A DNA stretch of 64,000 nucleotides from positions 11,284 to 75,283 of IMG/VR virus record IMGVR_UViG_3300042276_000119. The stretch is one strand, 5' to 3'. The position numbers were made by a program, and so were the translations under genes. The first letter of the stretch is position 1. The number at the start of each line of letters is the position of its first letter. The notes under the pieces were generated by a model that was given only the letters and a program-made list of their open reading frames with translations, searched no databases and was not told where the DNA came from. Positions 24,677 through 62,926 of this stretch are shown here, one piece after another. Source of the DNA: a virus. Lineage: Duplodnaviria > Caudoviricetes.

Positions 24677-24703
24677 GTAGTGGTCCTTTGGTTAGAGAGT
24701 TGG

Positions 24704-24943
24704 TTACTTCAGTTTTCGGTTCGCAGTGATTCGCTCGTAGTCATCACGGCAGTCTGAGTCACAGAAGAGCTTCACCTGCCGGTCCTGCATCTCGAAGGGT
24801 TCGTCACAGTTGTAGCAAATGCCTTTCGGGCTGAGCTTTGGCCCCGTGTTCAGCTGCGCTCTGGCGTTTGCGATGCCCATGTCGACAGTGCGTTGAATTT
24901 CAATGTCAGCCCTGTCGGCTGGGTCTCCGAAGTGAATACTCAT
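24704..24943 (-). CDS. DksA/TraR-like zinc finger protein
   Basis: DPADRAD N-terminal motif and CYNC...FCDSDC. Confidence 0.65.
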   Translation of the reverse strand: MSIHFGDPADRADIEIQRTVDMGIANARAQLNTGPKLSPKGICYNCDEPFEMQDRQVKLFCDSDCRDDYERITANRKLK

Positions 24944-25290
24944 GGATACGTCCACTCAAATTTTCCAGTTATCTTGTTGCCAAATTCGTCAATGTAGGTT
25001 GGCGTTGCATCTTTGCTGCGTTCCCAGTGTTCTCGGTGCACCAGAAGCAGAACAGGGTGATCCATCTCCCAGATGTGCCCACTCTCGAAGTAGGGGAATC
25101 TGGTTCCGGCGGGTACTTTGATCAGCAGAGGGCAGTCAACAGGTGGGAGTTCCTTGTTCAAATGCAGGTCGGTGCCAGGCAGCAGGAATCCCGCCACCGG
25201 CAACTCTGGGTGTTTCATCGCCTTGAAATACATCAGTGGAGCCTGGCCAGGCTCCCCGAGTTCCAGTGCGCAGTTAGGACACCGCTGCAT
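24940..25290 (-). CDS. hypothetical protein
   Basis: Likely start MQRCPNC overlaps the dUTPase end. Stop is coupled to the next ATG. Confidence 0.55.
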   Translation of the reverse strand: MQRCPNCALELGEPGQAPLMYFKAMKHPELPVAGFLLPGTDLHLNKELPPVDCPLLIKVPAGTRFPYFESGHIWEMDHPVLLLVHREHWERSKDATPTYIDEFGNKITGKFEWTYP

Positions 25291-25906
25291 AGCGAGACTC
25301 CAGCGCTTGGTACAGCCCATCCACATCTGAAAACTCTGCAGCGAGTTCCACCAGGTGCTCATTGTCTTCACGACCGTCAGCCCAGACCTTGGTGTACTCG
25401 CCGCGAGTCTGGCCGTGATTGATACGGAACCGGTTGAGGGTGTACTTGATGAAGTAGGCTTCGGCAATTTCACTGAAGCTGAAGCCGCAAGCTACGCACA
25501 GTTTGGTGAACCAGAACACGTCGAATTTGCCTTTCGTGGCTGCCTTCGCAAGGTCCCTGGCGTACTTGGCAACAGAACCCGCTGCAAGGTCTCCAGAGGG
25601 CCGTTCAGCCCCTGCAACCATGTTGGCGACTGCTTCTGCCGCTGCGTCCTGCATCAGCAAGACAGACAGGCCGAAGTGCATGATGTCCACCAGTTCCAGT
25701 TTAACCTGCTCCGTATCGCACACCTGCTTGCGGTAGTGGAAGATGCTGCCATCGTGGTTGAGCAGTTCGCCGGTTTCGATCCAGATGTAGTCTGCGAAAG
25801 GGTGGCCTTTGGTGCGCCACTCGGGGCAGTCGTATTGTGCATTCAGAAAATCCTGCGCTTCAAGAAGCTGTTCAATGGTCTTTGTGCAAAGGTGCATTTT
25901 GTACAT
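25274..25906 (-). CDS. dimeric (all-alpha) dUTPase
   Basis: Q..LN, ETGEL, KLELVDIMHF, Y..K..LNRFR..HG...G.Y.K.W..GREDNE signature. Confidence 0.9.
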   Translation of the reverse strand: MYKMHLCTKTIEQLLEAQDFLNAQYDCPEWRTKGHPFADYIWIETGELLNHDGSIFHYRKQVCDTEQVKLELVDIMHFGLSVLLMQDAAAEAVANMVAGAERPSGDLAAGSVAKYARDLAKAATKGKFDVFWFTKLCVACGFSFSEIAEAYFIKYTLNRFRINHGQTRGEYTKVWADGREDNEHLVELAAEFSDVDGLYQALESRYAAVS

Positions 25907-25917
25907 CCTTGGTTGTT

Positions 25918-28131: not shown

Positions 28132-28161
28132 GGTCTGGTCCTTTGGTCTTTTGGTCAGTCT

Positions 28162-28347
28162 TCAGGCTGATGTAGCTTTCCAGGTAATTGCCACTACCTC
28201 TCTCTGGACTCGTTCGTCCCCAATGCCTCGGGGTAGCTGTCTGGTTTCAAACTCCACTGATTCCAGATGAACATTGTGCTCTTTTTCTACCTGTTTAAAC
28301 GCCGCTTCCAGGATTTTATGGGTAGAGTTCGGCTCGCCTATGATCAT
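28162..28347 (-). CDS. hypothetical protein
   Basis: ACCAAAAGGAG leader precedes ATG 28347. Confidence 0.6.
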   Translation of the reverse strand: MIIGEPNSTHKILEAAFKQVEKEHNVHLESVEFETRQLPRGIGDERVQREVVAITWKATSA

Positions 28348-28363
28348 TTTTAGCTCCTTTTGG

Positions 28364-28633
28364 TCAGTCTTTGTCCGGTACGACATACGATTTGGTCACC
28401 GTCACTCTGCCGTGAGTTCGCTCGCCAAAAGCGTCTACCGGGGGCAAAGTGGGCGACAGCGTGAACTTCCTCAAAAACACTGCAAGTGGCCTGGCCCATA
28501 CATTGCCGTCCACGTCCCGGTACACCACCTCGGTCTCCCAAGACTCTGCCTTTTCGTTGGCTACGCAGATGATCTTGTACAGTCTCCCGCTGTGGTGCTG
28601 CCAGACTTGGTTTGTGATTGGGGTTTGCATCAC
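28364..28633 (-). CDS. DUF1653 family protein
   Basis: H.SG..Y.I...A.......VVYR...G.VWARP...F signature. Confidence 0.8.
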   Translation of the reverse strand: MMQTPITNQVWQHHSGRLYKIICVANEKAESWETEVVYRDVDGNVWARPLAVFLRKFTLSPTLPPVDAFGERTHGRVTVTKSYVVPDKD

Positions 28634-28881
28634 TGTACCTCCTGCTTCATCAGCATATACGGGCCCTTCCTACTGATAAACGCATTGAACTCTGTCCCAG
28701 ATAACCCTCCTTGGACTTTAGTAGTGTGCAACAGTAGCGCCTTGGCCAACTTGTACCCTGCCTCAAAATCCATCTCGAAGTGCTCCTCGAACCGCGAGGG
28801 GAGGTAGTCGTCGTCCTCCCGTTGTTCATCGGTGATGTCCAGAATCTCTGCTACCAACTCTTCAAAATCGAAAATGTCCAT
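28630..28881 (-). CDS. acidic hypothetical protein
   Basis: GGAGG RBS, coupled at both ends, D/E-rich N-terminal half. Confidence 0.65.
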   Translation of the reverse strand: MDIFDFEELVAEILDITDEQREDDDYLPSRFEEHFEMDFEAGYKLAKALLLHTTKVQGGLSGTEFNAFISRKGPYMLMKQEVQ

Positions 28882-29930: not shown

Positions 29931-29977
29931 GGTCTGGTCCTTTGGTCTTTTGGTTAGGGGCCAGAGGCCCCATGGTT

Positions 29978-35793: not shown

Positions 35794-35824
35794 TGGTCTA
35801 TCCCTTTATGGGTTGGTCTTTTGG

Positions 35825-36256
35825 TCAGTCGCAGCTGGAAGAGCTGCTTGAAGAACTTGAACTGCTGGAGGCGCAGGAACTTGAGGAATGGCTCGAACTG
35901 CCCGATACGCTGCTGATTGCCAGGCCACCGTCAGAGAAACTACTGATTGAAGCATTGTGATTAGTGTCAGTGGCTACTCTGACTGGCCGGGCAGGTTGCT
36001 TGTATCGGGTCGCAGTGTGTTTCGCTGAAGCGGGCTTATCTGTCTTGGCTACGGCTTGTAGGCTTCGAGTTCGGCGGATAGTATCTGCCTCAGCTCGGAA
36101 CCACTTCAGGTCGGAAGTAAGGGCTTCAATTCTGAGCCTGGCATCTACCAGTTTATTTCGAGCGTCAGCGGCTATCCCGCTGAGTACGAGGGTTGTCACA
36201 CCGAGCACACACACTGCAGCTGTGCCAAGGTCAATTCCTGTGTTCGGGTCTGTCAT
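35825..36256 (-). CDS. membrane-anchored protein with poly-Ser tail
   Basis: N-terminal hydrophobic helix, coiled coil, C-terminal SSSSSSSSSSSCD. Full leader motif upstream. Confidence 0.65.
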   Translation of the reverse strand: MTDPNTGIDLGTAAVCVLGVTTLVLSGIAADARNKLVDARLRIEALTSDLKWFRAEADTIRRTRSLQAVAKTDKPASAKHTATRYKQPARPVRVATDTNHNASISSFSDGGLAISSVSGSSSHSSSSCASSSSSSSSSSSSCD

Positions 36257-36280
36257 TGGTCTGGTCCTTTGGTCTTTTGG

Positions 36281-36355
36281 TGGTGGCCCCGAGGAGAATC
36301 AAACTCCAGTCGTCTCGGTTATGAGCCAAGCTGCTTTATCATAAGCTACAGGGCC
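36281..36355 (-). tRNA. tRNA with CAT anticodon, most likely Ile2 (lysidine type, reads AUA)
   Basis: GGCCCTGTAGCTTATGATAAAGC...CTTGG-CTCATAA-CCGAG...GGAG-TTTGATT-CTCC...GGGGCC-A-CCA. The GGCCC acceptor stem resembles Ile2 more than Met. Confidence 0.85.
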
Positions 36356-37464: not shown

Positions 37465-37547
37465 GATATTCACCTTTGGTCTTTGGTTAGGGACTTTCAA
37501 TTTCATTTTCATCGTCTTGCCTACCGTCAAATGCGATAGGTACAAGT

Positions 37548-43606: not shown

Positions 43607-43638
43607 GGTCGTTCCTTTTTGGTCTGGTCTTTTGGTCG

Positions 43639-43688
43639 TGTACAAATGTACAAAGGCACATTAAAGCGTTAGCACGTCAGTAAGTCAA
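43639..43688 (-). promoter_or_regulatory. sigma70-like promoter with operator motif over the +1 region
   Basis: TTGACT-17-TTTAAT followed directly by GTGCCTTTGTACATTTGTACA. Confidence 0.7.
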
Positions 43689-43982: not shown

Positions 43983-44217
43983 ACGCGTTCCTTTTGGCTA
44001 TGGCTTGCTGTTCTGCAAGTCTGAGGTGTTTTCGTTGGTAGTACCAATTCACAAAGAAGGTTGCCATGCCTAAGACAACCCCGAATGCGAGGGCGTTGTT
44101 GTTCAAGAAATCCAGCATACCCGCTGCAGTGAGTCCACCACTGGCTGTGTACGAAACTCCAGTGCTAACTTTAGCTGCAAGGGTAGTCGTGTGTTCTGAT
44201 AGAGTAGGGCCTGCCAT
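43939..44217 (-). CDS. holin (HP1-like)
   Basis: Follows the endolysin. Hydrophobic segments ending in TFFVNWYYQRK. Confidence 0.8.
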   Translation of the reverse strand: MAGPTLSEHTTTLAAKVSTGVSYTASGGLTAAGMLDFLNNNALAFGVVLGMATFFVNWYYQRKHLRLAEQQAIAKRNAYASHLYQDRANPED

Positions 44218-45510: not shown

Positions 45511-45533
45511 TGGTCGCTCCTGTGGTCTTTTGG

Positions 45534-45764
45534 TTATCGTTTACCTTGTGCTCTTTCTTCAAACAGCTTGTCCAGTGCCTCAATAATTATGGCTCTCATC
45601 GTGGTGCCTTCTACGGCGGCTATGACCTTGAGCTTATTTCTGTAGCTCTCTGGTACGTTAACAGGTATTCGTATGTCTGCTCCTGTGCCGCCTTTACCTC
45701 CTTTGGAGTTGCTTTTCGCCTGTTCTAGCAGGGCTTTCAGTTCTGTGTTAGCTGTGTCTGACAT
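45534..45764 (-). CDS. ribbon-helix-helix DNA-binding protein (ParG/omega/CopG-like)
   Basis: Flexible N-terminal tail, then IRIPVNVP (strand), ESYRNKLKVIAAVEG and TMRAIIIEALDKLF (helices). GGAGG RBS. Confidence 0.82.
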   Translation of the reverse strand: MSDTANTELKALLEQAKSNSKGGKGGTGADIRIPVNVPESYRNKLKVIAAVEGTTMRAIIIEALDKLFEERAQGKR

Positions 45765-50174: not shown

Positions 50175-50242
50175 GGTCGTTTCCTTTTGGTCTTTTGGTT
50201 GTGCCCCAGGCACCGTGCCGGAGCTGATTGGTTACAGACTGT

Positions 50243-51351: not shown

Positions 51352-51380
51352 GGTCGTAATTCCTTATGGTGGTCTTTTGG

Positions 51381-52286
51381 TTACGCTGCAAACACCCTGA
51401 CGCTGTTATGCAGCGGTTTGTAAAACTCTATCAAGCGGTTCTCAAGGTTTCTTAGGCCCTGCAATTCAGGTCCATAGGCGTGGTCGTAAAAATGGATATG
51501 CACCATCGCTTCAGGATGTCTCTTCATTACATGCTTTAGCTTGTGGTGTTGTGCTACGTTTCCTACCCTCCTAGAAAGCATTGTTGACATCCCTACGTAT
51601 AGCGGTGTCGTGCCCTCAAAAACTATGTAGATACCAGGCCCGTCCCTGTTGAACCTTTTTAAAAACCTGATTGGCGTGGATATGTCAGCTAACTTGACTC
51701 CGCACCCGTTCAGCCAACCTAAAGATGGGACCTCTACCTCTCTCAGAGTCACGCAATTTGAGTCAATATGTGAATTTTTAGCTACATAACTGGCCAATTC
51801 ATTTTCAGATATACCTGAGCCTAGCTCGCCTGAAGACAGGTGCCTGACGCTATAAACTATAGGCCAGTGTCCCTCTTGCTTTTTGCAGAGGTGCCGCACT
51901 ATCTCCAAAGCCGTAGGGTGTTCTGTGCAGGGAGTCTCCTCATAGTGTTCTGTGCAGGAAGTCTCCTCATAGTGGTGGAACGATGGATGGCCAATTTCCC
52001 AGTTTCTTTCAATATGCCTTTCCCAAAGTCTAGGGTCGTCAACCCTCACTGTACTCAGTGAAGCAAACTCCTTGAAAACGGAGGCTAGTAACGAACTCCT
52101 GCTAAGTCTTGGGCACTTAACTTCCAAAAAGAAAGTTAACTCAGGGTAGCATCCTACCAAGTTGGCCTTTTCTTCTTCAAAAGCATCTACTGGCCTCAGT
52201 GGTGAATGTTTAACCGTTACCACTTTACGGATTGAGCCCGAGGGGCCAGGCTTGATTGTATGCGTAACTATGATCGCGGTACCCAT
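51381..52286 (-). CDS. C-terminal GIY-YIG nuclease domain protein
   Basis: PGIYIV......LYVGMS..L..R....H...E..LI....P.HN. Lower GC than its neighbours. Confidence 0.75.
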   Translation of the reverse strand: MGTAIIVTHTIKPGPSGSIRKVVTVKHSPLRPVDAFEEEKANLVGCYPELTFFLEVKCPRLSRSSLLASVFKEFASLSTVRVDDPRLWERHIERNWEIGHPSFHHYEETSCTEHYEETPCTEHPTALEIVRHLCKKQEGHWPIVYSVRHLSSGELGSGISENELASYVAKNSHIDSNCVTLREVEVPSLGWLNGCGVKLADISTPIRFLKRFNRDGPGIYIVFEGTTPLYVGMSTMLSRRVGNVAQHHKLKHVMKRHPEAMVHIHFYDHAYGPELQGLRNLENRLIEFYKPLHNSVRVFAA

Positions 52287-52976: not shown

Positions 52977-53008
52977 AGTCTTGGTCCTTTTGGTCATTGT
53001 TCCACTAT

Positions 53009-53029
53009 TGCACATTTGTACATTTGTGC
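53009..53029. promoter_or_regulatory. operator-like motif
   Basis: TGCACATTTGTACATTTGTGC in an intergenic region. Confidence 0.65.
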
Positions 53030-53079
53030 CTATAGTGAAAGCTCTTCGTTGTGATTCTTGCTTTAAACATTTCTCCATT

Positions 53080-53299: not shown

Positions 53300-53358
53300 G
53301 GTCATTGGTCCTTTTTGGTTAGGGATGCCCCGGCACATGGCCGGGGAGCGTTGGTTAA

Positions 53359-54459
53359 TCAGAAGTTGTATGGGTCAGCCAGGGCTTCATTGAGCCGGTT
53401 GTACATGTACTCGGCATCCTGCTTGGTGCGGAAGTCGGCAATGGCAGCGCACTCGCCGTCCACCTTGTAGGCGTAGAGGGTGAACAGAACCTCATGGATT
53501 CGGCCCTCGTTATGGAGTCGATTCAGATCAACGTCGTCGGCTCGCTCGATGTAGGTTTCGTCGCCGTCGATGACCTCTACACACGCAGCCATGTCGAACC
53601 GGTTATACTCATCCTTGTACCCAAGATCGCGGTGCCAGTTGAGCCCTTCGCCCGGAATTTTGGCTTCTTTGCGAGCCCGCTTCAGGTGCTCGTCGATGTC
53701 CCTCTCACTGAACAAGGTTTCGGCCACCTCCCCATCGGCGTAGGCGGAGAACACCTCCTCACGGGTGATCCATGTGGATTTGTCTCGGGCATCGACCATG
53801 CGGCTGGCACAGATGTGCTTGCCTTGATAGGTGACGCAGGCATGTTGGGTGGTGTAACTGCCGGTCCAGTATTCCGACATCAGGAACCGCTCAAACCCAA
53901 GGTCGGCATCACACTGCCACTTCTGAGGCGGCAGAACCTCCAGTGCGTCCATGAACTCCCGGTAGGTCTCCATGTGCAGCTCGGCATTGCCCAGCAGGTG
54001 TTCCCGCTCCATCTGAAACCATTGCTCGATAGTTACGGCCTGCAGAGTGTTCGAAATGTCACGCAGCGGCGCATTGAACTGCTTCTGCCATGCCTCTGGC
54101 GTCCAAGTCTTGCACGTCTCCAGGTACTCTTCGTGCAGTTTGGCTTTCAGACTGGACAGCAGCTGTGGCAGCTGAGATTCAGTGGTCTCGCGGATGGTGT
54201 AGACCCGAGGCATTGCGCCTGGCTTGGCAAACTTGTCCTCGTAGATGATGGCCCATTCCTGCACCTTCTCAACCTGAGTGATGCAATACTCTACTGTGTA
54301 ATCCATCTCTTTGGTGTTGGGGCCGGCATAGGCACTGTTGTGGATCACCCGCACTGTACGGGCCTCCTGATCAATGTCGAGTACCAGGGCCAGGCCGTCC
54401 GGGGTCAGAACGTGATCTTCCAAGGCGATGTTGTTCGGGTTGAAATCGGTCATGGTCAT
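53359..54459 (-). CDS. early multidomain protein with a DUF1419-like segment
   Basis: F..ALEVLPP..W.......F.MSE...G..T motif. Leader motif present. Confidence 0.7.
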   Translation of the reverse strand: MTMTDFNPNNIALEDHVLTPDGLALVLDIDQEARTVRVIHNSAYAGPNTKEMDYTVEYCITQVEKVQEWAIIYEDKFAKPGAMPRVYTIRETTESQLPQLLSSLKAKLHEEYLETCKTWTPEAWQKQFNAPLRDISNTLQAVTIEQWFQMEREHLLGNAELHMETYREFMDALEVLPPQKWQCDADLGFERFLMSEYWTGSYTTQHACVTYQGKHICASRMVDARDKSTWITREEVFSAYADGEVAETLFSERDIDEHLKRARKEAKIPGEGLNWHRDLGYKDEYNRFDMAACVEVIDGDETYIERADDVDLNRLHNEGRIHEVLFTLYAYKVDGECAAIADFRTKQDAEYMYNRLNEALADPYNF

Positions 54460-54624
54460 TTCCTTTTGGTTGTTTTTCTGCCAAAAGCAGATGGTTAAAG
54501 TGTTGCACTGATGTACATTTGTACATTATGATTGGCTTTCACGTGTGGTAACCGTGTACTCGGTTAGGTGGTCTGGTCTGCCATCTACCACCCTGACCGC
54601 CTGAGCGGTCAGGGCTCCTATCCC

Positions 54625-55293: not shown

Positions 55294-55294
55294 A

Positions 55295-55582: not shown

Positions 55583-55642
55583 GGTCTTGGTCCTTTTGGT
55601 TAGGTGCCCGGCACCATACCGGGCGCTTTGGTCAGATAGCGG

Positions 55643-55867
55643 TCAGTCCAGGGTCCACTGAGTCACTTCATGGGCTCCGGTGATGTCGCGCAGGAACTTC
55701 TGTACCTCATGGGAGGTGAAGATTTCGTGGGTGTTGAAGTCATCGCCAAAACTGAAGGTCGTAACCCGTGGGCCGTGTGCCCAGAACCGGTGATACACGC
55801 TCACCTTACGGTCTTCTGTGAGGGATATTTCGTAGCCCTTGCTACGGAGGAATTCAAAGAGTTCCAT
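55643..55867 (-). CDS. early hypothetical protein
   Basis: Leader motif precedes ATG 55867. Confidence 0.65.
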   Translation of the reverse strand: MELFEFLRSKGYEISLTEDRKVSVYHRFWAHGPRVTTFSFGDDFNTHEIFTSHEVQKFLRDITGAHEVTQWTLD

Positions 55868-55896
55868 GGTCGTATTCCTTTTGGTTAGGGAAGGGT

Positions 55897-56003
55897 TCAA
55901 AGTGGGCGCTCAAGCGCCCTCAAAGTGGTCGCTCAAGCGCCCTCAGAGTGGCCGTTCAAGAGTCCTCAAAGCGGTCGCTCAAGAGTCCTCAAAGCGGTCG
56001 CTC
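55897..56003. repeat. 23-bp degenerate tandem repeat, about 4.7 copies, derived from a gene end
   Basis: Units at 55897, 55920, 55943, 55966 and 55989 with consensus TCAAAGYGGTCGCTCAAGMGYCC. Confidence 0.9.
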
Positions 56004-56210
56004 GATGAAGTACCGGCCTTCCTGCTTGTTCACGAGGAGGATTTCGTCCACACCTACCTGAGGCTGGCCGATGACGATCTCGCCTTCCTTGATCTTGGTC
56101 TCCACTGCGAACCGGGCTTCCCGGTAATTGCCATCGTAGTAGGGCAGGTAGTACCGCAGGGCGGCGTTCTCGTCGATGAAGTGGTTGGTGCCTACTGAAA
56201 TTGTGTTCAT
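55989..56210 (-). CDS. early hypothetical protein
   Basis: GGAG RBS, 73 aa. Confidence 0.65.
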   Translation of the reverse strand: MNTISVGTNHFIDENAALRYYLPYYDGNYREARFAVETKIKEGEIVIGQPQVGVDEILLVNKQEGRYFIERPL

Positions 56211-56212
56211 GC

Positions 56213-56491
56213 CTACTCTCCAAAAATTCGTTCAAAGTCTTCGGCGCCGATCTCGCCCTCGAAAATAGTCGTCGGCACACTGCCGGCAATGACCTCTGCC
56301 CAAGGCCGCAGGGCATGATCCAGGCAGACAATCTGCAGGTTGCCGTCCAGCAGGCCCACCTCTTTGGCCAAGTGGGCGTACTTGGGACGTAGGTCACAAG
56401 GATACTGATTGGGCCTCATGTGGGTGGGCCAAAGGTACATGCGGCATTGAGTGTTGCCGGGGTGTACTTCGAGGGTGACTGGCTTTTTCAT
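56213..56491 (-). CDS. early hypothetical protein
   Basis: GAGGA RBS, ATG overlaps the upstream stop. Confidence 0.6.
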   Translation of the reverse strand: MKKPVTLEVHPGNTQCRMYLWPTHMRPNQYPCDLRPKYAHLAKEVGLLDGNLQIVCLDHALRPWAEVIAGSVPTTIFEGEIGAEDFERIFGE

Positions 56492-56892
56492 GCCGCATCC
56501 TCCTCTTCCTCTCCGTTCAGCCTGATGTTCAGGTGGTCGCAATAAATCGCTTCCTCCGTCTCATCCACGTTGAGCAGGCCGACTACACGCCAACCTGTAG
56601 ATGCCCCGTTCTGGAAGTCCCAGACGACATTCTTGAACTCAGCCCGGACGGCGGCGAAGGACAAGATGCCCCCGTCCTGAGTGACGAAAGCGAGGCGGTA
56701 CCCTCCGGGCCAGGAGAACTCCCCGGCACGGAGGGTGGCCTTGAGCCGAGACAGGGTGGTGATGTCGTTGAAGTGGTACTGGAACTTCTCACGCAGCGGC
56801 GGCATTACGTTCCAGATAGGTTTGCGGGTGTCGTACAGGTCGCCAGAGGAGGTGACGAACAGATGGTCTGGTCGTTGAATGTTCATGGTCAT
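56488..56892 (-). CDS. early hypothetical protein
   Basis: WPGGY.L.F.T.DG..L and YCDH motifs. Leader motif present. Confidence 0.7.
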   Translation of the reverse strand: MTMNIQRPDHLFVTSSGDLYDTRKPIWNVMPPLREKFQYHFNDITTLSRLKATLRAGEFSWPGGYRLAFVTQDGGILSFAAVRAEFKNVVWDFQNGASTGWRVVGLLNVDETEEAIYCDHLNIRLNGEEEEDAA

Positions 56893-56918
56893 TGGTCCTT
56901 TTGGTTAGGCGGCAGGCG

Positions 56919-57179
56919 TCAGCCCACCAAGCTGTCTGGATTTACCCGGGCACCTTTCTCGATCAGGCGCTGAAGACGCTCATGGGCGGCGGCGAACAGG
57001 GCGGCGCCACGCTGGTCACCCAGCTCCTTATAGCGCCGGGACGAACGGGCATAGCCGGTCACGGTTTCGTCAAAGAACAGGCGGTGTCTTCGCGCCTGCC
57101 CTTTGACCATGATCAGGAGGGTTTCGGGCTTTCTGGCTCGGGAGAAGAACACTCGGTACTCTGATTCGAGGTTGGTCAT
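56919..57179 (-). CDS. basic early hypothetical protein
   Basis: GAGG RBS, packs in the operon. Confidence 0.6.
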   Translation of the reverse strand: MTNLESEYRVFFSRARKPETLLIMVKGQARRHRLFFDETVTGYARSSRRYKELGDQRGAALFAAAHERLQRLIEKGARVNPDSLVG

Positions 57180-57190
57180 GCCTCAGTTCC

Positions 57191-57511
57191 TTACTTGTTA
57201 AAAGCCTTCATACAGGTCAACATCTCTTGGTTCGCAAACTCCCTTGCACTGCGCTGGATAGCCTGCTCTGTTCTGAACTGAGGGTGCTCGAAAGACCGCA
57301 TGACGATAGCCACCCCTATGTCATCATCTGCCATAATTTCCAGCATCCTAGACATATCCACCCCGGCATGTCGGGAAAGCATGACCTGTTTAGCCATGGA
57401 GCTGTATGAGGAACAGACTGTCATAGCCGGGGAGGATTCCTCTTTGGGTTCAGCCATTACCGGCAGGGAGAATGAAATAACTGCGAGCGCTGTAATGATG
57501 TTCTTACGCAT
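57191..57511 (-). CDS. secreted protein
   Basis: MRKNIITALAVISFSLPVMA signal peptide and two Cys. Operator-like motif upstream at 57533-57548. Confidence 0.7.
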   Translation of the reverse strand: MRKNIITALAVISFSLPVMAEPKEESSPAMTVCSSYSSMAKQVMLSRHAGVDMSRMLEIMADDDIGVAIVMRSFEHPQFRTEQAIQRSAREFANQEMLTCMKAFNK

Positions 57512-57549
57512 AATATGTACCTATTGGTTATTTGTGCAAATGTACATTG

Positions 57550-57930
57550 TCACGCCGGGCAAAGTCCAGCGAGTTCTCCATGCCCCTTGAATACCTTCTG
57601 GTGAGGAGGCAACTTCTTGCGGAGCTTGATCTGCTCCGGTCTGTAACCGAGGCTGAGCAGTTTGCGCCACGCCAGCCAGTGGAATGATTTCACCTCCTCG
57701 TACTTGAAGCCCCGAGTTTGATCCCGGTACCACGTGAAGTGGCCAGACTGGTAGACCACCTCTTCCTCTTGGGCCTTTCTCGGGTCCATCGGCCACTTGT
57801 CCAGCGTGATCACGCCGAGGTAAGGGTAGTGGCTGGGTGAGTCACTGCGGGCCAGCACAGCGTATGGCTGGCCCGTCTTGGTTGAGATTCGGTAGACCAC
57901 GGTCACCGAGTCAGTTGGGTTTGGCATCAC
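57550..57930 (-). CDS. early hypothetical protein
   Basis: AGGAG RBS, coupled to the upstream stop. Confidence 0.6.
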   Translation of the reverse strand: MMPNPTDSVTVVYRISTKTGQPYAVLARSDSPSHYPYLGVITLDKWPMDPRKAQEEEVVYQSGHFTWYRDQTRGFKYEEVKSFHWLAWRKLLSLGYRPEQIKLRKKLPPHQKVFKGHGELAGLCPA

Positions 57931-58985
57931 TCAATCTCCTGTAACCGGCTGATCACTCCAGTGATCTCGTGCTTCATCGAATCCATCTCATTGCGCAAGT
58001 CTTGGGCACGTTGCTCGGCATCTCGGGCTTCACGTAGAGCCCGCTGCAGCAGCATGTAGGGCGCCAATGGGGCCTCTGGCCATTCAGTTGTGCCACATGC
58101 ACAAGACGCCAGAGGCTCGTCCTCGTGGTGCTCATACATGTCGCCACAGTCAGTGCAGACCCCGTGCTTGGCGAGGAGGGTGGCATAACGGTCGCGCTCT
58201 TTGCGCAGGTTGTCTTCAATGTCGGAGGAGATGGCGGCATTGTGCTCTAGCTTGGCTTCAGCAGCTTCAGCTCGACCTTTCCACTCGGCCAGCTTGGCTT
58301 GGGCATCGTATCCGTCAATCTGCTTCCTGATCCGCGCCGTGGCACCGGCCAGCTGGCTTTTCAGGCGGCGGTTCTCCTCGGCCAGGTCGCCTTGGAAGGC
58401 AGGTGAGGGAGGCTGAGCAGAGAGTATCGCAATGCGGTTTTCCAACTCCTCGTTCACCTCCTCAGACTCGTTAAGCATCCGGGTAGCCTCCCGCAGTTTT
58501 GCCTGCAGCTCCTTCACCCACTGATCCCGAGCGGCCAGGATGGTCTTGATCTCCTGATCCTTGCTGGCAATTACATCGGACATTTCCTTGTTCAGGCGCC
58601 GCACCTCAGCGGAGGGCGGGGATGCCTCTAACTCCGTGATCCGGCGCAGGGCCAGGGCGTAATCCGCCTCCAGCTTCTTGATGGTCTCGCGGAGATGGGG
58701 GATTTCCCACGTCATTTCCCGCATGGTGTTGCGGTAATTGCGGAACATAGCAGATGTTGCCTTGAGCTGGAGTTCAGCCTGCAGGAGTTCTGATTGGCGG
58801 CAGGCTGGCATGTGGTGCTTCCTCATGTACTGAATACCGGAGGTGTCCCAGATGGTCATGCGGCCGTCTGTCAACTGCTGCAGGTCGATGACGAGGTAAT
58901 CGTCACCTTTATAGCTGAATTCCGCTTCGCTGTACTCGGAAGCGTCGAGGTAGGTGGCGTCAGGCCACACGTAGATTTTTGTCAT
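57927..58985 (-). CDS. coiled-coil protein with zinc-ribbon insertion
   Basis: Long heptad repeats with CTDC...CAC. Leader motif present. Confidence 0.7.
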   Translation of the reverse strand: MTKIYVWPDATYLDASEYSEAEFSYKGDDYLVIDLQQLTDGRMTIWDTSGIQYMRKHHMPACRQSELLQAELQLKATSAMFRNYRNTMREMTWEIPHLRETIKKLEADYALALRRITELEASPPSAEVRRLNKEMSDVIASKDQEIKTILAARDQWVKELQAKLREATRMLNESEEVNEELENRIAILSAQPPSPAFQGDLAEENRRLKSQLAGATARIRKQIDGYDAQAKLAEWKGRAEAAEAKLEHNAAISSDIEDNLRKERDRYATLLAKHGVCTDCGDMYEHHEDEPLASCACGTTEWPEAPLAPYMLLQRALREARDAEQRAQDLRNEMDSMKHEITGVISRLQEIE

Positions 58986-59026
58986 TGGTTTGGTCCTTTT
59001 TGGTTAAGGGAAATTAGGTGTCGAGG

Positions 59027-59281
59027 TCAGCACGACAGCTGCACAAGCCCGCCACGCGGGCCAGTGCGGTAAGCCCGGTCAGGCAGGCAATCACACGGGA
59101 ACATGCCTTCCGGTTTGCCGAAGAACACCAGCATTTCGCTTGGCCCTTCAGCAAACGAGCTTACATCGTCATGCTGACGCAGTAGGCTGCGCTTGGCATC
59201 TGCGAGGCTGTGGAACTCCTCATAGTCATCCGGCATTGGGCTGGCACAGCCAGCGAGGAATACTTGGGCGTAGCATTTCAT
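59027..59281 (-). CDS. early hypothetical protein
   Basis: Ends PDR....GPRGG. Leader motif precedes ATG 59281. Confidence 0.65.
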   Translation of the reverse strand: MKCYAQVFLAGCASPMPDDYEEFHSLADAKRSLLRQHDDVSSFAEGPSEMLVFFGKPEGMFPCDCLPDRAYRTGPRGGLVQLSC

Positions 59282-59318
59282 TGGTCGTAATTCCTTTTGG
59301 TTGAGGGGAGCCTTTTGG

Positions 59319-59936
59319 CTAGTAGAAGCCCAGGGTGCATTCACGGTCGTCAATCACCCAGTGCGGCACCTCGACACTGGCTCTGATCATGCCGTCAGCA
59401 GTGGCCCCGCAAGTGCCCCAACGCTTGAACAGGCGGGCCTTAGTGCCGTCCCGGCGTATCTGCGGGGTGTCGGTGGGTACGGCGTGGAAGTACCCACCGG
59501 ACACTGAGGTTTGCAGTTTGCCGCCACGCACCTCTACAAACGGGATGTAAGGGTTGGTACACACGGCTAAGTGTGGCACCTGTAGGTGTTCGTCGGCGTG
59601 TGCGGTGACAATAGCCTCGCTGTATATGCGGTAGCCTTCCTCGTCCCGCTTATCGTCGTAGAACAGAGGTCCGCCAGTGGGCTTTGCGATCACCCTGACG
59701 GAGTGCATCAGAGTCGGAGTGGAGGCGTCCATCTCCTTGGCGAAGTACGCCTCCAGCTCGGCCTTGTACTGCTGGTACAGGGCGAAATCACCTTCCCAGT
59801 CGCCGTGTGAGAGGTTCAGGAGGAAGAATTCCGCCTCCTCGACGGAGAGGGCTTCGTACTTGGCCTCTGAGGCGTCGATGCTCATCCGGCGCTGGAACAG
59901 GCCAACAAGTAGGTCGCGGGTGTGGATTGGATTCAT
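59319..59936 (-). CDS. early hypothetical protein
   Basis: SVSGGYF, F..WG..GA.ADG motifs. Leader variant upstream. Confidence 0.7.
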   Translation of the reverse strand: MNPIHTRDLLVGLFQRRMSIDASEAKYEALSVEEAEFFLLNLSHGDWEGDFALYQQYKAELEAYFAKEMDASTPTLMHSVRVIAKPTGGPLFYDDKRDEEGYRIYSEAIVTAHADEHLQVPHLAVCTNPYIPFVEVRGGKLQTSVSGGYFHAVPTDTPQIRRDGTKARLFKRWGTCGATADGMIRASVEVPHWVIDDRECTLGFY

Positions 59937-59990
59937 TGGTCGTTTCCTTGCTCCCGCAAGGGGAGCCTTTTGGTTGAGTGGTGGGTTCGT

Positions 59991-60182
59991 TTACAGTCGC
60001 CACTCGTTGTGGTCAAGCACATACAAGACGGAGCAAACGCCGTAGGCTATGCCGTAGATTACGGCCACAAACAGCGGGATGAATAGCCACATCTGCACCA
60101 ACATCGTCAGCACAATGAAAAAGATGATGGCAGCTGCGCTAAACACCATGCGGGGCGTGGGGTTGGGGAATTCGTTATTCAT
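59991..60182 (-). CDS. small membrane protein
   Basis: Two hydrophobic helices, GGAGG RBS. Confidence 0.65.
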   Translation of the reverse strand: MNNEFPNPTPRMVFSAAAIIFFIVLTMLVQMWLFIPLFVAVIYGIAYGVCSVLYVLDHNEWRL

Positions 60183-60919
60183 TGATACCCCTCCTCGGCC
60201 TGTTCCGCATTACACCGGCAGAGTGTGCCGTGGGCACCACATTCCAGTTCGCAGCCATCATTAGATGGCTGGTGGAGTTGGTTGGCATCATTAGATGGCT
60301 GGTGGAGTTGGTTGGCAATAATGTCGAACTCCCATTTCGTTATACAGGTTCGAATCCTGCCCTCATTGAATAGTGCACGCTTAACCTGATCAATCACCTC
60401 GGCATCGTGAACGGCGAGACTTTGATTGGGCGACATGGCCAGCACCTCATCCACAGTAAGATCAAGAGCAGGAATGTAGTTTAGGTGACTGTTCATCGCT
60501 TTAAGCGCGGTTCTGAGCTGGTTGTTCTGAGCTTTCAACTGATCGCGCTTTTGTCTAACCGAGTCCAGCGTTTTACCTCGCTGATAAAAAGCATACTGTT
60601 TATCAGCGAGCTGCATTTTCAACGCATCAATCTGGCGGTGTAGTTGCTCGACTTCTTGCTCCGTAGCGACCAGCTTGCGAGACAGCCAGCGGATGCGCTG
60701 TTTTGCCGCAGTCAGCAGCGTGATCGAAGAGGACTCACCGGACATAACGGCCGCAAGGTCGAGTTCTCTGTGATTATGTGCAAACACGGCGTTGGCCAGC
60801 TGATCATCACTCAGGTGCCCGAGTGCCAGCGCCTCTCGTTCACAACTGTAACGGTCTCCATGCGGGTCGTCTTGACCTGCTTCTCGCCATTCGGCGCTTG
60901 GTGTTTTGTTCGTAGTCAC
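60179..60919 (-). CDS. coiled-coil protein, Ead/Ea22-like mosaic
   Basis: Coiled coil followed by SLA.HDAEVI. Contains a 30-bp duplication at 60256-60317. Confidence 0.6.
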   Translation of the reverse strand: MTTNKTPSAEWREAGQDDPHGDRYSCEREALALGHLSDDQLANAVFAHNHRELDLAAVMSGESSSITLLTAAKQRIRWLSRKLVATEQEVEQLHRQIDALKMQLADKQYAFYQRGKTLDSVRQKRDQLKAQNNQLRTALKAMNSHLNYIPALDLTVDEVLAMSPNQSLAVHDAEVIDQVKRALFNEGRIRTCITKWEFDIIANQLHQPSNDANQLHQPSNDGCELECGAHGTLCRCNAEQAEEGYQ

Positions 60920-61113
60920 GATTTTGTCTCCAACTCACTATTCAAAGGCACCACCTCCTCTGGCTCCGGTGCCTCGCAAGGCATCCACGCCGAGAAATGC
61001 TCGTTGTCCACAAACACAAAGCATTTCCTGCTGGACAACTGGTAATACTGGCCAAGCAGGTCTTTGTGAGTGGCACCTGCCTGTATCATTGTTAAGTCCA
61101 TTGAGACCGTCAT
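60916..61113 (-). CDS. small hypothetical protein
   Basis: GGAGG RBS, coupled at both ends. Contains GATH. Confidence 0.6.
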   Translation of the reverse strand: MTVSMDLTMIQAGATHKDLLGQYYQLSSRKCFVFVDNEHFSAWMPCEAPEPEEVVPLNSELETKS

Positions 61114-62879
61114 TTCTCATCCTCCGTTACATTGTCACTCTGGGAAGGAGAAGGGGAAGGGGAAGGATCGGAGGAAGGAGAAGAAGGCTGGGGCTCGTCA
61201 TCCTTCTCCCAAAACGGCTTGTACTCCTCCTTGCTCGGGAGCCGGAACCGCTCACCCTCAGGCGTCTGGGGGATGAAGAATCCCTCATCCTCGTCATCCT
61301 CTGAGGAGGCTAGGGCATCCAGCAGCGATACAGCAGGTTCATCATCGTCCTCGTCAGGGTCGTAACCATGCAAGTCAGACGGCCGCACCACCTCAGGATC
61401 GTTACGGTTCTCGATCCGCTTGATCTCCCTGTCGGAGAGGGGGTTGGTGGCGTAGTTATTCGGTGCACCTATGATCATCTCGTAGAAAGCCGACAGCTCC
61501 TCGACCGGCTCCTCTCCACGCTGAATCTTGTCAGGGTCTATGCCAATGAGCCTGTCCGCCACTGCCTTCATATCGCAGTACCGGGATGCTTTGCTTGATG
61601 ACAGTGTATTGGTGAAGTGTGCATACGGGCGGTAAAACGCCTCGTCATACACCGGCAAGCTGATATTGCTGAACTCACAGATGTTTCGCTTCACCGACAT
61701 CACTGTATGGTCAGTCGCAAACCTTCTCCGGTACACAACCGCTGCCTCCATCACCCACAGCAGTAGGCAGTGGAGGGGAACGTGGTAATACAGTGCAATG
61801 GCCAACAACTGCGTGTCCGTCCACTTCAGGTTCACCTCGGAGGCTATGGCGTAGCAGAACAGATCGTTAAGCAGGATTTCGTCTACTGTGTCGAACACAC
61901 TAGGAGAAGACGCAAGGTAGTTCGCTCGGTACTTCCGTGCCTCGTCGTAACGCCGTTTAAGTTCAGGGGTGAACGTGGCCTGCACCGTACAGGGGAATGG
62001 ACCAGAACGTAGTCGGGCCGAAAAATCCTGCTGCAGCGATGCGATGTCGAATCTACCAAACTGGAACAGTTCGTCTGGCAAGCTCTTCGCCTTGTAGTGG
62101 GACGTACCATATTCCCAGTGAAGGTTGGATGAACTGCCGAATGCTAGTGCAGTGAGTCTAGCCGCCTTCTCTGCAAGCACCTTCTTGGGCACGAGATTTG
62201 CCCCCTCATTCTGCAGAGTTGCGCTTCCAATGTGGTGATTCTTCATCGAGTAAAGCGTGGTAGTAGATGCTGCTTTTCGCCATGCACCTATCTGGGCCGG
62301 AGCGCCAGGATCGCCCTTGAACTTATCTGCGTATTTCTCCAGCAGAAACTTTGAGAATCCGCTTACCCACTTAGGTGTAGAACCTGCCAACAGATCGTAA
62401 GGGGATACAGACCTGTCCCAGGCACCCATCTCGTGCAGCTTTTCATAACTAGGGTATATGTGGGCGAGAGGGTAGATCACCTTCTCTTTCAGCTCAGGTT
62501 TAGCCAGCAGAATAGGTACCCACCTGTCCATGATCTGCGAGAAAATGGGGTCAGGGCCAAATCGGCAATCCGACTGCATCCAGAACTCGGTCAATGCTTC
62601 AGCCACCTTATCCCACAGCGGCCACACTCCGTACTCGTGACTTGAATTGGGTCTCGCGGGGTCAAGTCCTGTAGAAGCGTAGGTGTCGAGAAACTTCACC
62701 AGCTTCGACGCGCTGGGAGTGTGGCCCTGATAGGCCATGCGGTAGAGGCTCGACCGGGACAGGTGCCACTCCATGTGGCTCAGGTCATTCAGTGCGTGAT
62801 GAGCCATGTCGGCAATGAAGCTGCCGGATAGTACATAGATGTTTTGGTGTCGTGAAGTGGGTTGGTCGTGATTGGTCAT
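61110..62879 (-). CDS. 589-aa orphan with possible N-terminal HTH and acidic/Pro-Ser tail
   Basis: First gene of the leftward arm, with promoter and ACCAAAGGACC leader. LSRSSLYR...G.TPS..KL.KF resembles an XRE-type HTH. Confidence 0.75.
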   Translation of the reverse strand: MTNHDQPTSRHQNIYVLSGSFIADMAHHALNDLSHMEWHLSRSSLYRMAYQGHTPSASKLVKFLDTYASTGLDPARPNSSHEYGVWPLWDKVAEALTEFWMQSDCRFGPDPIFSQIMDRWVPILLAKPELKEKVIYPLAHIYPSYEKLHEMGAWDRSVSPYDLLAGSTPKWVSGFSKFLLEKYADKFKGDPGAPAQIGAWRKAASTTTLYSMKNHHIGSATLQNEGANLVPKKVLAEKAARLTALAFGSSSNLHWEYGTSHYKAKSLPDELFQFGRFDIASLQQDFSARLRSGPFPCTVQATFTPELKRRYDEARKYRANYLASSPSVFDTVDEILLNDLFCYAIASEVNLKWTDTQLLAIALYYHVPLHCLLLWVMEAAVVYRRRFATDHTVMSVKRNICEFSNISLPVYDEAFYRPYAHFTNTLSSSKASRYCDMKAVADRLIGIDPDKIQRGEEPVEELSAFYEMIIGAPNNYATNPLSDREIKRIENRNDPEVVRPSDLHGYDPDEDDDEPAVSLLDALASSEDDEDEGFFIPQTPEGERFRLPSKEEYKPFWEKDDEPQPSSPSSDPSPSPSPSQSDNVTEDEK

Positions 62880-62926
62880 TTTGAGGTCCTTTGGTATGGG
62901 TGGTCTGAGGGTGTAACAGAGGTGCC

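Follow-up and report, generated by a model that had tools for sequence, protein, structure and literature searches.

A common A/C-rich ribosome-binding leader before about 20 early and replication genes of an uncultured wastewater phage

In this uncultured phage from wastewater, one common A/C-rich ribosome-binding leader precedes about 20 genes of the early and replication groups. The window that we analyzed is the whole stretch of 64,000 nucleotides from position 11,284 to position 75,283 of IMG/VR record IMGVR_UViG_3300042276_000119. Judging from the sequence and from structure models, we consider it probable (about 0.58) that the leader acts in cis as a C/A-rich cassette for translation initiation at self-starting genes and doubles as a recombination joint.

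The initial annotation had described a leader on about 20 genes, and the counts bear this out. The window contained 19 exact matches to ACCAAAAG, against 2.0 expected (100 dinucleotide shuffles: mean, 2.01; sd, 1.36; maximum, 5; 0/100 reached 19). It is the commonest 8-mer across the full 75,283-bp record. Eighteen of the 19 matches were on the minus strand. All 18 were at most 40 nt upstream of a curated minus-strand start (binomial P = 5e-23, for 60 curated minus-strand starts whose upstream 40-nt stretches make up 5.8% of the region). The lone plus-strand match in the window, at 17427, was within an ORF. The start list is our own heuristic curation. Four starts opposite the TnpB gene (48930, 48500, 48197, and 47976) were left out, as were 47504 and 21942, and five were exchanged (49999 for 50174, 57424 for 57511, 37512 for 37464, 56280 for 56397, and 47278 for 47350).

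From its 5' end, the leader contains a stop codon or G+C hairpin, one to three T(A/G)ACCAAAAG units of 8 nt each, AAGGA, 3 to 5 nt, and GACC(A) directly before ATG. The unit variants are T(A/G)ACCAAAAG, ACCAAAGG, and ACCAGACC. ATG is the start codon after all 21 leaders, with the purine core 6 to 9 nt before it. AAGGA is present in 18/21 leaders, and 8 leaders contain ACCAAAAGGA. The 24-mer ACCAAAAGACCAAAGGACCAGACC is the same at 28131, 29930, and 36256, as had been claimed. Nonorthologous leader-bearing genes share identical 3' halves of 12 to 14 nt. All 21 starts listed initially carry the leader, but position 54459 is better replaced by 54453. The corrected start yields AAGGAAATGACC-ATG, which closes with GACC-ATG as is usual; in relative G003, ACG stands in place of the 54459 ATG. 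The leaders and adjoining elements are as follows.

62880..62895 (-): leader ACCAAAGGACCTCAAA; start 62879, 589-aa ORF
62930..62943 (-): TGTACAAAGGTACA box upstream of the 62879 leader, overlapped by a weak sigma-70-like match; possible promoter or operator, comparable to the cluster K ESAS
59937..59974 (-): leader with internal hairpin, ACCAAAAG-GCTCCC..GGGAGC-AAGGAAACGACCA; start 59936; orthologous form in G012
59282..59319 (-): composite leader, GCCAAAAGGCTCCCC (truncated hairpin-type unit) then AACCAAAAGGAATTACGACCA; start 59281
58986..59004 (-): leader ACCAAAAAGGACCAAACCA; start 58985; hairpin-type leader in G001
56887..56905 (-): leader ACCAAAAGGACCAATGACC; start 56886; in G001, two leader copies enclose an 814-bp insert here
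56910..56929 (-): G+C-rich hairpin immediately 5' of the 56886 leader
55868..55885 (-): leader ACCAAAAGGAATACGACC; start 55867
55904..55942 (-): long hairpin with a fold z-score of -3.98, upstream of the 55867 leader
55583..55600 (-): leader ACCAAAAGGACCAAGACC; start 55582; G001 similarity stops at its 5' edge
55606..55624 (-): hairpin CCCGG..CCGGG immediately 5' of the 55582 leader
54454..54470 (-): leader ACCAAAAGGAAATGACC; corrected start 54453
54512..54525 (-): TGTACAAATGTACA box upstream of the 54453 leader
53300..53319 (-): leader ACCAAAAAGGACCAATGACC; start 53299
53328..53346 (-): hairpin CCCCGGC..GCCGGGG 5' of the 53299 leader, with TAACCAA on either side
52977..52994 (-): leader ACCAAAAGGACCAAGACT; start 52976
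53009..53022 (-): TGTACAAATGTGCA box upstream of the 52976 leader
51352..51381 (-): leader ACCAAAAGACCACCATAAGGAATTACGACC; start 51351; its TAA ends an upstream GIY-YIG-like ORF that is missing in G001
50175..50199 (-): two-unit leader ACCAAAAGACCAAAAGGAAACGACC; start 50174; one unit in G001 and G003
50203..50224 (-): hairpin 5' of the 50174 leader
45511..45534 (-): leader ACCAAAAGACCACAGGAGCGACCA; start 45510; its TAA terminates the upstream gene
43607..43636 (-): leader ACCAAAAGACCAGACCAAAAAGGAACGACC; start 43606, Dda-like helicase gene
43639..43652 (-): TGTACATTTGTACA box abutting the 43606 leader
43983..43998 (-): leader-like GCCAAAAGGAACGCGT; start 43982, overlapping (coupled) 90-aa ORF
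37465..37487 (-): leader ACCAAAGACCAAAGGTGAATATC; start 37464; same in all six compared genomes (G000 to G005)
36257..36281 (-): three-unit leader ACCAAAAGACCAAAGGACCAGACCA; start 36256
35794..35825 (-): leader ACCAAAAGACCAACCCATAAAGGGATAGACCA; start 35793, DNA polymerase I gene; its TGA is the upstream stop codon
31705..31732 (-): ACCAAAAG box 28 nt before start 31704 (ligase gene, coupled), inside the preceding coding sequence
29931..29954 (-): three-unit leader; start 29930, SbcD-like gene; same in the six genomes G000 to G005, flank differs
29957..29971 (-): hairpin GGGGCC..GGCCCC 5' of the SbcD leader; in relatives the stem is kept and the loop varies
28348..28364 (-): leader ACCAAAAGGAGCTAAAA; start 28347, 61-aa ORF
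28149..28358 (-): 210-bp cassette (61-aa ORF) in this genome only, bounded by GACTGACCAAA(A)G leader repeats
28132..28155 (-): three-unit leader; start 28131, SbcC-like gene; two-unit form in relatives
24677..24692 (-): leader ACCAAAGGACCACTAC; start 24676; a second TAACCAAC before it contains the upstream stop codon

The leader marks uncoupled genes, as had been proposed. A relaxed leader (CCAAARG or CCAAAAAG at most 40 nt from the start) was found at 21/34 uncoupled starts versus 2/26 coupled starts (Fisher P = 1.5e-5); the other 13 of the 34 uncoupled genes have none. GGAG or GAGG is present at 19/26 coupled and 9/18 late starts. The initial annotation had also noted that one part of the leader was not seen before the plus-strand late genes. 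In the window, the relaxed leader is indeed at 0/18 plus-strand starts, but the left arm outside it differs. There, one leader-like plus-strand copy precedes an integrase/excisionase-like ORF, another lies upstream of the terminase gene but away from its start, and TAACCAAAGACCA precedes the major head gene. These copies had been missed.

The leaders are 75% A+C over positions -30 to -1, versus 47 to 51% in the other start classes. Over -20 to +6, the mean unpaired probability, which was predicted on 100-nt pieces and largely follows from composition, was 0.65 for the 21 leaders. It was 0.47 for 10 leaderless uncoupled starts, 0.45 for 26 coupled starts, and 0.45 for 16 late starts (Mann-Whitney P = 5e-5, 1e-7, and 4e-6, respectively). 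In the centroid structure the leader is open beside a hairpin in 6/8 folded intergenic regions. Some leaders have a stable hairpin between box and Shine-Dalgarno (SD) sequence (59936; the G001 and G012 forms). Partial sequestration is predicted for the 54453 leader, where an upstream CUUUUGG is able to pair with the CCAAAAG box. The 16S rRNA of Halomonas, a gammaproteobacterial stand-in that may not be the host's, ends GGATCACCTCCTTA and contains no sequence complementary to the ACCAAAAG box or GACC. The leader is therefore not plain SD pairing, and the earlier statement that conservation extends beyond the SD core agrees with this.

The leader is kept in six close relatives with 73 to 99% nucleotide identity, and 19 loci of relatives with PolA identity of at most 42% lack it. 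In 29 pairwise orthologue comparisons at 16/21 leaders, among relatives that are not independent, differences affected 7.7% of leader positions and 7.0% of the first 30 nt of coding sequence, versus 19.1% of the 30 nt upstream, a value inflated by replaced segments. The leader is unchanged before the core genes for PolA, SbcC, SbcD, and the helicase despite diverged flanks. Unit number and spacer are freely variable between orthologues (1 versus 2 units at 50174 and 2 versus 3 at 28131).

Leader units are also joints for the gain and loss of gene cassettes, which the initial annotation had not noticed. Small cassettes were gained or lost exactly between leader copies. Structural differences of at least 40 bp have a leader boundary in 6/15 cases versus G001, 3/4 versus G003, and 1/5 versus G005; the other 9/15 breakpoints versus G001 are away from leaders. 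Three inserts have direct leader repeats on both sides, and several replacements end within a leader. A coupled-type ribosome-binding site (RBS) repeat, GGAGGTRCAGTGATG, likewise flanks the cassette at 28642-28879.

In the mechanism that we propose, the one to three G/U-poor units would form an unstructured C/A-rich landing (standby or enhancer) stretch for the 30S subunit, probably via ribosomal protein S1, as we infer. The AAGGA core would then act as the SD sequence, and the GACC(A) context would end at the ATG. The cassette would be used wherever the ribosome loads unaided, at the first gene in each short block. Where a gene overlaps the preceding stop codon, translational coupling and a GGAG/GAGG site would take its place. 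Leader copies could also act as short homologies for insertion, deletion, and swapping of gene blocks, because about 20 near-identical copies share one orientation, and recombinational copying would maintain their likeness. Among the enhancer, regulator site, and RNase signal suggested initially, a putative translation enhancer is best supported because of the SD-ATG spacing, the A+C content, the predicted unpairedness, and the use only at self-starting genes. The interpretation in the initial annotation is, as a whole, partly supported.

Retention of the exact 8-mer in 18 copies, and not just of A/C composition, is left unexplained by a generic unstructured enhancer. Such conservation would suit an operator for a dedicated trans-acting regulator, as would the ACCAAAAG box kept even where a hairpin parts it from the SD sequence, the restriction to one gene class and one strand, and the lineage-specific motif. 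The factor, an RNA-binding protein of phage or host or a G/U-rich small RNA, would bind the ACCAAAAG/GACC units and switch about 20 early and replication genes jointly on or off. T4 RegA acts on early mRNAs as a group regulator. GcvB is reported to target C/A-rich enhancers (PMC5934652). We consider such a regulator possible but unlikely, since no RNA-binding domain was found in a Pfam scan of 49 early/middle proteins or a PHROGs scan of 56, the leader complement occurs on early-strand transcripts only inside the 54453 leader itself, and unit number and spacer are free to vary. Recombinational copying without selection could also account for the likeness. Leaders would then ride mobile gene blocks and be homogenized by recombination, and the repeat would chiefly be a PeSL-like joint with the expression role of an ordinary RBS. 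The inserts between direct repeats, the replacements ending in leaders, the variable copy number, the identical 3' halves, the GGAGGTRCAGTGATG-flanked cassette, and the T4-type PeSL precedent (PMC2839356) all point that way. We find it rather improbable: the leader is unchanged before the core genes, its strict SD-ATG spacing and A/C composition indicate RNA-level selection, and most G001 breakpoints are not at leaders.

A transcription or processing signal is very improbable. It could be a phage promoter or start element giving near-leaderless mRNAs, and the 24-nt conserved stretch is about as long as a phage RNA polymerase promoter; sigma-70-like promoters in the region are not above chance (12 versus 10.2 expected and 2 versus 7.4 expected). 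However, the motif holds a correctly spaced SD sequence and ends at ATG, no RNA polymerase gene was found among the proteins scanned against Pfam (49 early/middle) and PHROGs (56), and the separate TGTACA-type box is a better promoter or operator candidate. An RNase site cutting a long early transcript would fit the hairpin directly 5' of many leaders, but it is unsupported, as the leader is nearly free of U and lacks a duplex, and we take it to be unlike RNase E or RNase III sites. It is just as doubtful that the leader is the usual ribosome-binding context of the host. An unrelated 48%-GC phage contig (G011/G013) from the same sample series does carry three hairpin plus ATAAACCAAA(A)GGAG..GACC-ATG leaders, and ACCAAAAGGA-N3-4-GACCATG is about 2.3 times commoner than its reversed control in IMG/VR outside both phage types (65 versus 28 loci). 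Yet coupled and late genes of the same phage use GGAG/GAGG without A/C units, and five candidate host-clade genomes (2.7 to 4.4 Mb) contain only 0 to 3 copies of ACCAAAAGGA each, versus 3 to 13 for the reversed control.

T4 RegA is a translational repressor, and T4 RegB cleaves at GGAG in early SD sequences. As with their sites, the leader marks an early mRNA class at the initiation region, by which it could be handled as a group. The sequences are unrelated, and no RegA or RegB homologues were found among the scanned proteins (Pfam, 49 early/middle; PHROGs, 56). The putative enhancer also resembles E. coli C/A-rich enhancers and standby sites in having an unstructured C/A-rich tract immediately upstream of the RBS. 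In published tests, C/A-rich and CA-repeat tracts upstream of the RBS strongly raise translation by a length-dependent standby effect, and the cases described (CA-repeat tails and GcvB-targeted regions) are synthetic tails or single host leaders (PMC5934652). In contrast, the phage reiterates one defined sequence before 20 genes, and its enhancer role is read from sequence. Like the PeSL cassettes of T4-type phages (PMC2839356, PMC4122927), the leader is a repeated intergenic regulatory module between small accessory genes, and close relatives differ by genes inserted, deleted, or swapped through recombination between its copies. A PeSL is an early promoter plus a terminator stem-loop, whereas the present element is an RBS leader with only sometimes an adjacent hairpin; recombination here is known from genome comparison rather than from minicircles.

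Elements of this kind have been described before in other phages. Start-associated sequences (SAS), with the extended ESAS, are known from cluster K mycobacteriophages (PMC3203893), and others from Microbacterium cluster EF phages (PMC7302621). Citrobacter phage Mordin has a comparable 26-bp repeat (PMC4611695). The analogy with cluster K, drawn initially, agrees in every testable defining feature. Both are short asymmetric repeats with an SD core a few nucleotides before ATG starts. Both have 10 to 20 copies in a single orientation at nonstructural genes mostly set apart from the upstream neighbor. The upstream stop codon is sometimes within the repeat, and neither repeat is common in the host or in other phages. 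Some copies come with an additional element upstream, which in the present phage is a TGTACA-type box or a hairpin. Unlike SAS, whose cluster K consensus is the unrelated GGGATAGGAGCCC, the present leader has reiterated 8-nt C/A-rich units in variable number, a weaker AAGGA core, and no G3..C3 flanks. Its host is probably a proteobacterium, whereas that of cluster K is actinobacterial. Its copies, unlike SAS, come with junction evidence that they serve as recombination joints.

The leader, an A/C-rich ribosome-binding stretch repeated before about 20 minus-strand early and replication genes, is a real and clean feature of this genome. It is most likely a ribosome-loading cassette, as suggested by its sequence and by the published behavior of C/A-rich tracts in Escherichia coli. 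The virus record contains 75,283 bp and is about 90% complete, and the window covers its bases 11284-75283. The minus-strand half (window positions 22000-63500) encodes a DNA polymerase I (PolA), a primase, two helicases, an SbcCD-like nuclease and a ligase. It also encodes a resolvase-like protein, a thymidylate synthase, a dNMP kinase, a lysis cassette and many small ORFs without assigned function. The tail genes are on the plus-strand half, and the terminase, portal, protease and major head genes are in the left arm outside the window.

The 8-mer ACCAAAAG was found 19 times in the window, 18 times on the minus strand. It is the most frequent 8-mer of the whole genome. Shuffled windows contained 2.01 ± 1.36 copies, and 0/100 shuffles reached 19. 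All 18 minus-strand copies lie at most 40 nt upstream of one of 60 listed minus-strand starts (heuristic ORF calls and manual choices, with some rows dropped or replaced), and 5.8% of the region falls in such stretches (P = 5e-23). The initial annotation named 21 leader starts, and a leader was present at 21/21. One of these starts was moved from 54459 to 54453, because the usual GACC-ATG ending then results and the first ATG is replaced by ACG in the close relative G003. The 24-mer reported as identical before 28131, 29930 and 36256 is indeed identical at all three.

Read 5' to 3' on the minus strand, the leader contains a stop codon or G+C-rich hairpin, then T(A/G)ACCAAAAG units, an AAGGA-type core, GACC(A) and the ATG. 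The T(A/G)ACCAAAAG part has one to three 8-nt units (ACCAAAAG, ACCAAAGG or ACCAGACC). At 35793, 45510, 51351 and 28347, its T(A/G)A doubles as the stop codon of the gene upstream. Three to five variable bases, mostly A or C, separate the purine core from GACC/GACCA. The leader ends 0-1 nt before the ATG in 21/21 cases, with the core 6-9 nt upstream, and A+C makes up 75% of the tract. At 59936 and 59281, and in forms from the relatives G001 and G012, a GCTCCC..GGGAGC hairpin separates the ACCAAAAG box from the Shine-Dalgarno (SD) sequence. Box and SD are separable modules, since a hairpin can intervene between them.

The predicted unpaired probability from -20 to +6 is 0.65 for leaders; the three remaining start classes have 0.45-0.47. 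In predicted folds of eight intergenic regions, the leader was open and preceded by a hairpin in 6/8. In these models a single-stranded C/A-rich tract would lie directly 5' of the ribosome-binding site (RBS), as in C/A-rich enhancers or standby sites. Upstream of the 54453 leader, positions 54471-54500 (CUGCUUUUGGCAG) contain CUUUUGG, which is complementary to the leader's CCAAAAG and is duplicated in G001. In the predicted fold the box is sequestered. A second hairpin family, CCCCGGC..GCCGGGG without U tracts and with (T)AACCAA on both flanks, is present at 53328-53346, 50203-50224 and 55606-55624, and in L019 at about 25835-25860. The distant Pseudomonas phage UAntarctica has a near-identical hairpin ahead of its SbcD-like gene.

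The leader marks genes that are separated from the upstream stop, as the initial annotation proposed. It was found at 21/34 such uncoupled starts and at 2/26 coupled starts, which overlap or abut that stop (Fisher P = 1.5e-5). The SD type also differs, with AAGGA in 18/21 leaders and GGAG or GAGG at 19/26 coupled and 9/18 late (plus-strand) starts. From both observations, each leader heads one to four translationally coupled genes. The initial annotation did not see one part of the leader before the plus-strand late genes. Within the window the leader is indeed at 0/18 plus-strand starts, but there are plus-strand copies outside it. One stands with a TGTACA-like box ahead of an excisionase-like ORF overlapping the integrase gene. 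The major head gene has a partial copy, TAACCAAAGACCA, 5' of a GAGGA site, and the terminase start has a leader-like remnant 110 nt upstream.

The tyrosine integrase gene is in the left arm (L227, 3210-4544), between the terminase and portal genes. The excisionase-like ORF encodes 108 aa and overlaps its start in another frame, and the arrangement could reflect a frameshift or a gene fusion. An integron-like reading was dropped, as this recombinase, which has an arm-binding domain, is a phage-type integrase of the ordinary kind. A 2688-aa tape-measure-like gene contains a 126-bp periodic repeat at 3186-4215. In this repeat, AAAGACC (plus-strand sense) occurs at 3711, 3837, 3963, 4089 and 4215.

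Four leaders (62879, 54453, 52976 and 43606) are downstream of a TGTACA(A/T)3TGTACA-type box. The 14-bp form TGTACA(A/T)3TG(T/C)(A/G)CA occupies about 16 intergenic sites in both arms and both orientations, often just 5' of genes, and TGTACA itself occurs 51 times in 75 kb.

TGTACA-type boxes (window positions; either orientation)
2057-2103, 2770-2783, 16470-16483, 21928-21941, 43639-43652, 44734-44747, 47520-47533, 53009-53022, 54512-54525, 57533-57546: in the window, with further boxes in the left arm

The box is likely a phage promoter or operator, and it is a better candidate for that role than the leader. Sigma-70-like promoters and intrinsic-terminator-like sites were found at chance level only. 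A reading of the leader as a promoter or RNase signal fits poorly. Its fixed distance to the ATG, built-in SD and strand specificity argue for a function on the mRNA at translation initiation.

Six IMG/VR contigs (G001-G005 and G012) are close relatives of the present genome, G000. They are mosaic, with 73-99% nucleotide identity to it over shared segments. A PolA profile search of IMG/VR recovered relatives at 97-98% or at most 42% identity and none in between, and megablast of 10 kb against GenBank phages gave no match. The closest named phages by PolA (37-40% identity) are Pseudomonas phages UAntarctica, PMBT3 and Lana and Vibrio phage SHOU24. The 24 sequencing runs listed with window positions 50000-59999 were all wastewater or bioreactor DNA, and none was RNA. 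The best matches of the TnpB protein are 85-87% identical proteins of Halomonadaceae and Ectothiorhodospira, a weak host hint rather than a host assignment. The host is probably a proteobacterium.

All six relatives carry the leader on the gene-sense strand. ACCAAA[AG]G was counted 23 times in G001, 9 in G002, 14 in G003, 10 in G004 and 11 in G005. The exact 19-mer ACCAAAAGACCAAAGGACC was retrieved from IMG/VR only in five of the close-relative contigs. The 19 loci with at most 42% PolA identity contained 0-2 copies each, and in UAntarctica these had no link to starts. By these counts the leader is a feature of the present lineage. The full leader string matched 74 IMG/VR loci vs 28 for a reversed control, which is uninformative because any SD+ATG string would be expected to show such a modest excess.

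Orthologues were available at 16 leaders, giving 29 pairwise comparisons among relatives that are not independent. Leader positions differed at 53/689 (7.7%), the first 30 coding nt at 61/870 (7.0%), and the 30 nt upstream at 166/870 (19.1%, inflated by replaced segments). The leader differences were mostly changes in unit number. The SbcD leader is the clearest case of conservation. Its 24 nt are identical in 6/6 genomes (G000-G005), while the upstream hairpin loop and adjacent flank differ in each lineage.

The leaders are also sites of gene exchange. Structural differences were counted as alignment breakpoints of at least 40 bp. The boundary was inside a leader in 6/15 vs G001, 3/4 vs G003 and 1/5 vs G005. 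Three of the differences are inserts flanked by direct leader repeats.

Inserts between direct leader repeats
28149-28358: 61-aa gene, only in the present genome, between two GACTGACCAAA(A)G copies
56886 leader: 814-bp gene insert in G001
Near 47446, at a degenerate leader: 680-bp gene insert in G003

At 55582, 58985, 59936 and 51351, the similarity to a relative starts precisely at the leader or inside it. Leaders of non-orthologous genes can have the same 12-14-nt 3' half, for instance AAGGAATTACGACC at 51351 and 59281, and unit number differs between orthologues at 50174 and 28131. Joints are not confined to leaders. The cassette at 28642-28879 (83-aa gene) is absent from G001 and G003 and replaced by a different 834-bp segment in G005. 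It is flanked by the 15-nt repeat GGAGGTRCAGTGATG, which is a coupled-type RBS (the SD and start of coupled genes). The other differences were a TnpB element, a GIY-YIG-like ORF and an HNH insertion.

Elements at these other differences
47629-49009: 1381-bp insert with an IS605-type OrfB/TnpB (Cas12f-like TNB domain) on the plus strand, absent from G001; it interrupts a minus-strand ORF
51381-52286: 301-aa ORF that weakly matches GIY-YIG and probably encodes a free-standing homing endonuclease; absent from G001, with other sequence there in G003
23115-24494: thymidylate synthase gene with an in-frame HNH-endonuclease-like insertion; 23455-24290 is 834 bp here vs 297 bp in G005

The initial annotation held that conservation extends beyond the SD, and the pairing agrees with this. 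Of the leader, AAGGA alone can pair with the ...CCTCCTTA 3' end of Halomonas 16S rRNA, a gammaproteobacterial stand-in that may not be the host's. No complement of the ACCAAAAG box was found in this 16S, so extended 16S pairing or an epsilon-like enhancer was rejected for the stand-in. Unstructured C/A-rich tracts and CA repeats 5' of the RBS strongly raise translation in E. coli, as reported in PMC5934652. There, the effect is length dependent and mediated by ribosome standby, and such enhancers are targets of the sRNA GcvB. The mRNA position, the lack of 16S pairing beyond the core, the predicted open C/A-rich tract and the E. coli effect together point to a standard "load here" ribosome cassette that would head each gene block. 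Its uniformity may be maintained by copying between copies, which would make the leader a hot spot for gene exchange. Pure copying without a role in expression would account for the junction data. It does not account for the strict spacing or for core genes that keep an unchanged leader while their flanks have diverged.

Alternatively, the ACCAAAAG/GACC units may be the recognition code of a dedicated trans-acting factor from phage or host (a protein or a G/U-rich RNA). It would switch translation of the roughly 20 early and replication genes on or off as one regulon, and the units would also be exchange points that admit new genes to it on insertion. This better explains why an exact 8-mer is retained rather than merely a composition, and why the box persists where a hairpin separates it from the SD. 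We consider it unlikely, since neither an RNA-binding protein nor a complementary RNA was found. No RNA-binding, RegA-like or RegB-like family was present among 56 proteins scanned with PHROGs or 49 scanned with Pfam, and the only antisense partner on early transcripts was CUUUUGG within the 54453 leader. The leader could also, though improbably, be the host's usual ribosome-binding context, and some host influence is favored by three similar leaders in G011, a phage contig of 48% GC that is unrelated but comes from this sample series. These consist of a hairpin and ATAAACCAAA(A)GGAG..GACC-ATG. The 48-nt hairpin + ATAAACCAAA(A)GGAGACTGACC-ATG module of G011 (L226, 7050-7140, 7340-7430 and 9040-9125) stands before two genes, with a similar one before a third. 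Host context is weakened by the different RBS of coupled and late genes in the same phage. It is also weakened by the 0-3 copies of ACCAAAAGGA in each of five Halomonadaceae/Ectothiorhodospira genomes, candidate host clades chosen for the TnpB identity that may not be the host's.

A ribosome-loading leader of this type resembles the start-associated sequences (SAS) of cluster K mycobacteriophages, to which the initial annotation likened it. The likeness is one of descriptive features. According to PMC3203893, SAS are SD-containing asymmetric repeats 3-7 bp before mostly ATG starts, with an upstream extension in a subset, and the leader is alike in both respects. SAS number about 10-20 per genome in one orientation, with 11-19 copies in cluster K; here there are 21 leaders, and 18/19 ACCAAAAG copies are on the minus strand. 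SAS are in the non-structural arm, as is the leader within the window, with exceptions outside it (the integrase-region ORF and the major head gene). SAS genes stand apart from their neighbors with gaps of >50 bp, whereas leader gaps are 16-208 nt and often shorter. SAS are rare in the host and in other phages; here the candidate host-clade genomes have 0-3 copies of ACCAAAAGGA each, and the unrelated contig G011 has three similar leaders. The published cluster K and EF consensus sequences (GGGATAGGAGCCC; GGGAAAGGACCCC) differ from the leader. Similar elements of Microbacterium cluster EF phages (PMC7302621) and Citrobacter phage Mordin (PMC4611695) also have no sequence homology to it. Membership is therefore of kind and not of descent. 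T4 RegA/RegB-type control differs, as the scanned proteins of this phage include no homologue. The recombination behavior parallels that of the PeSLs, repeated regulatory cassettes of T4-type phages, as described in PMC2839356. Indels and replacements between close relatives are bounded by repeat copies here too, but the repeat is an RBS leader and does not have the promoter and terminator stem-loop make-up of PeSLs.

SAS were first described in 2011, and papers from 2024 and 2025 (PMC11373665 and PMC12699233) still describe their role as unknown. The present system has three useful properties. It is outside the actinobacteriophages (probably in a proteobacterial phage), its C/A-rich tract is of a type with a measured translational effect in E. 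coli, and six diverged relatives reveal the conserved parts and the sites of gene exchange. With these properties, it is a simple and testable model for the entire SAS class, in which the element would be a portable expression plug that makes an inserted gene translatable and marks the next insertion site. If cis-acting and host independent, the 18-25-nt leader could be used as a compact RBS part. The leader belongs to the already known but functionally unsolved SAS kind, to which it adds a C/A-rich modular build and direct junction evidence.
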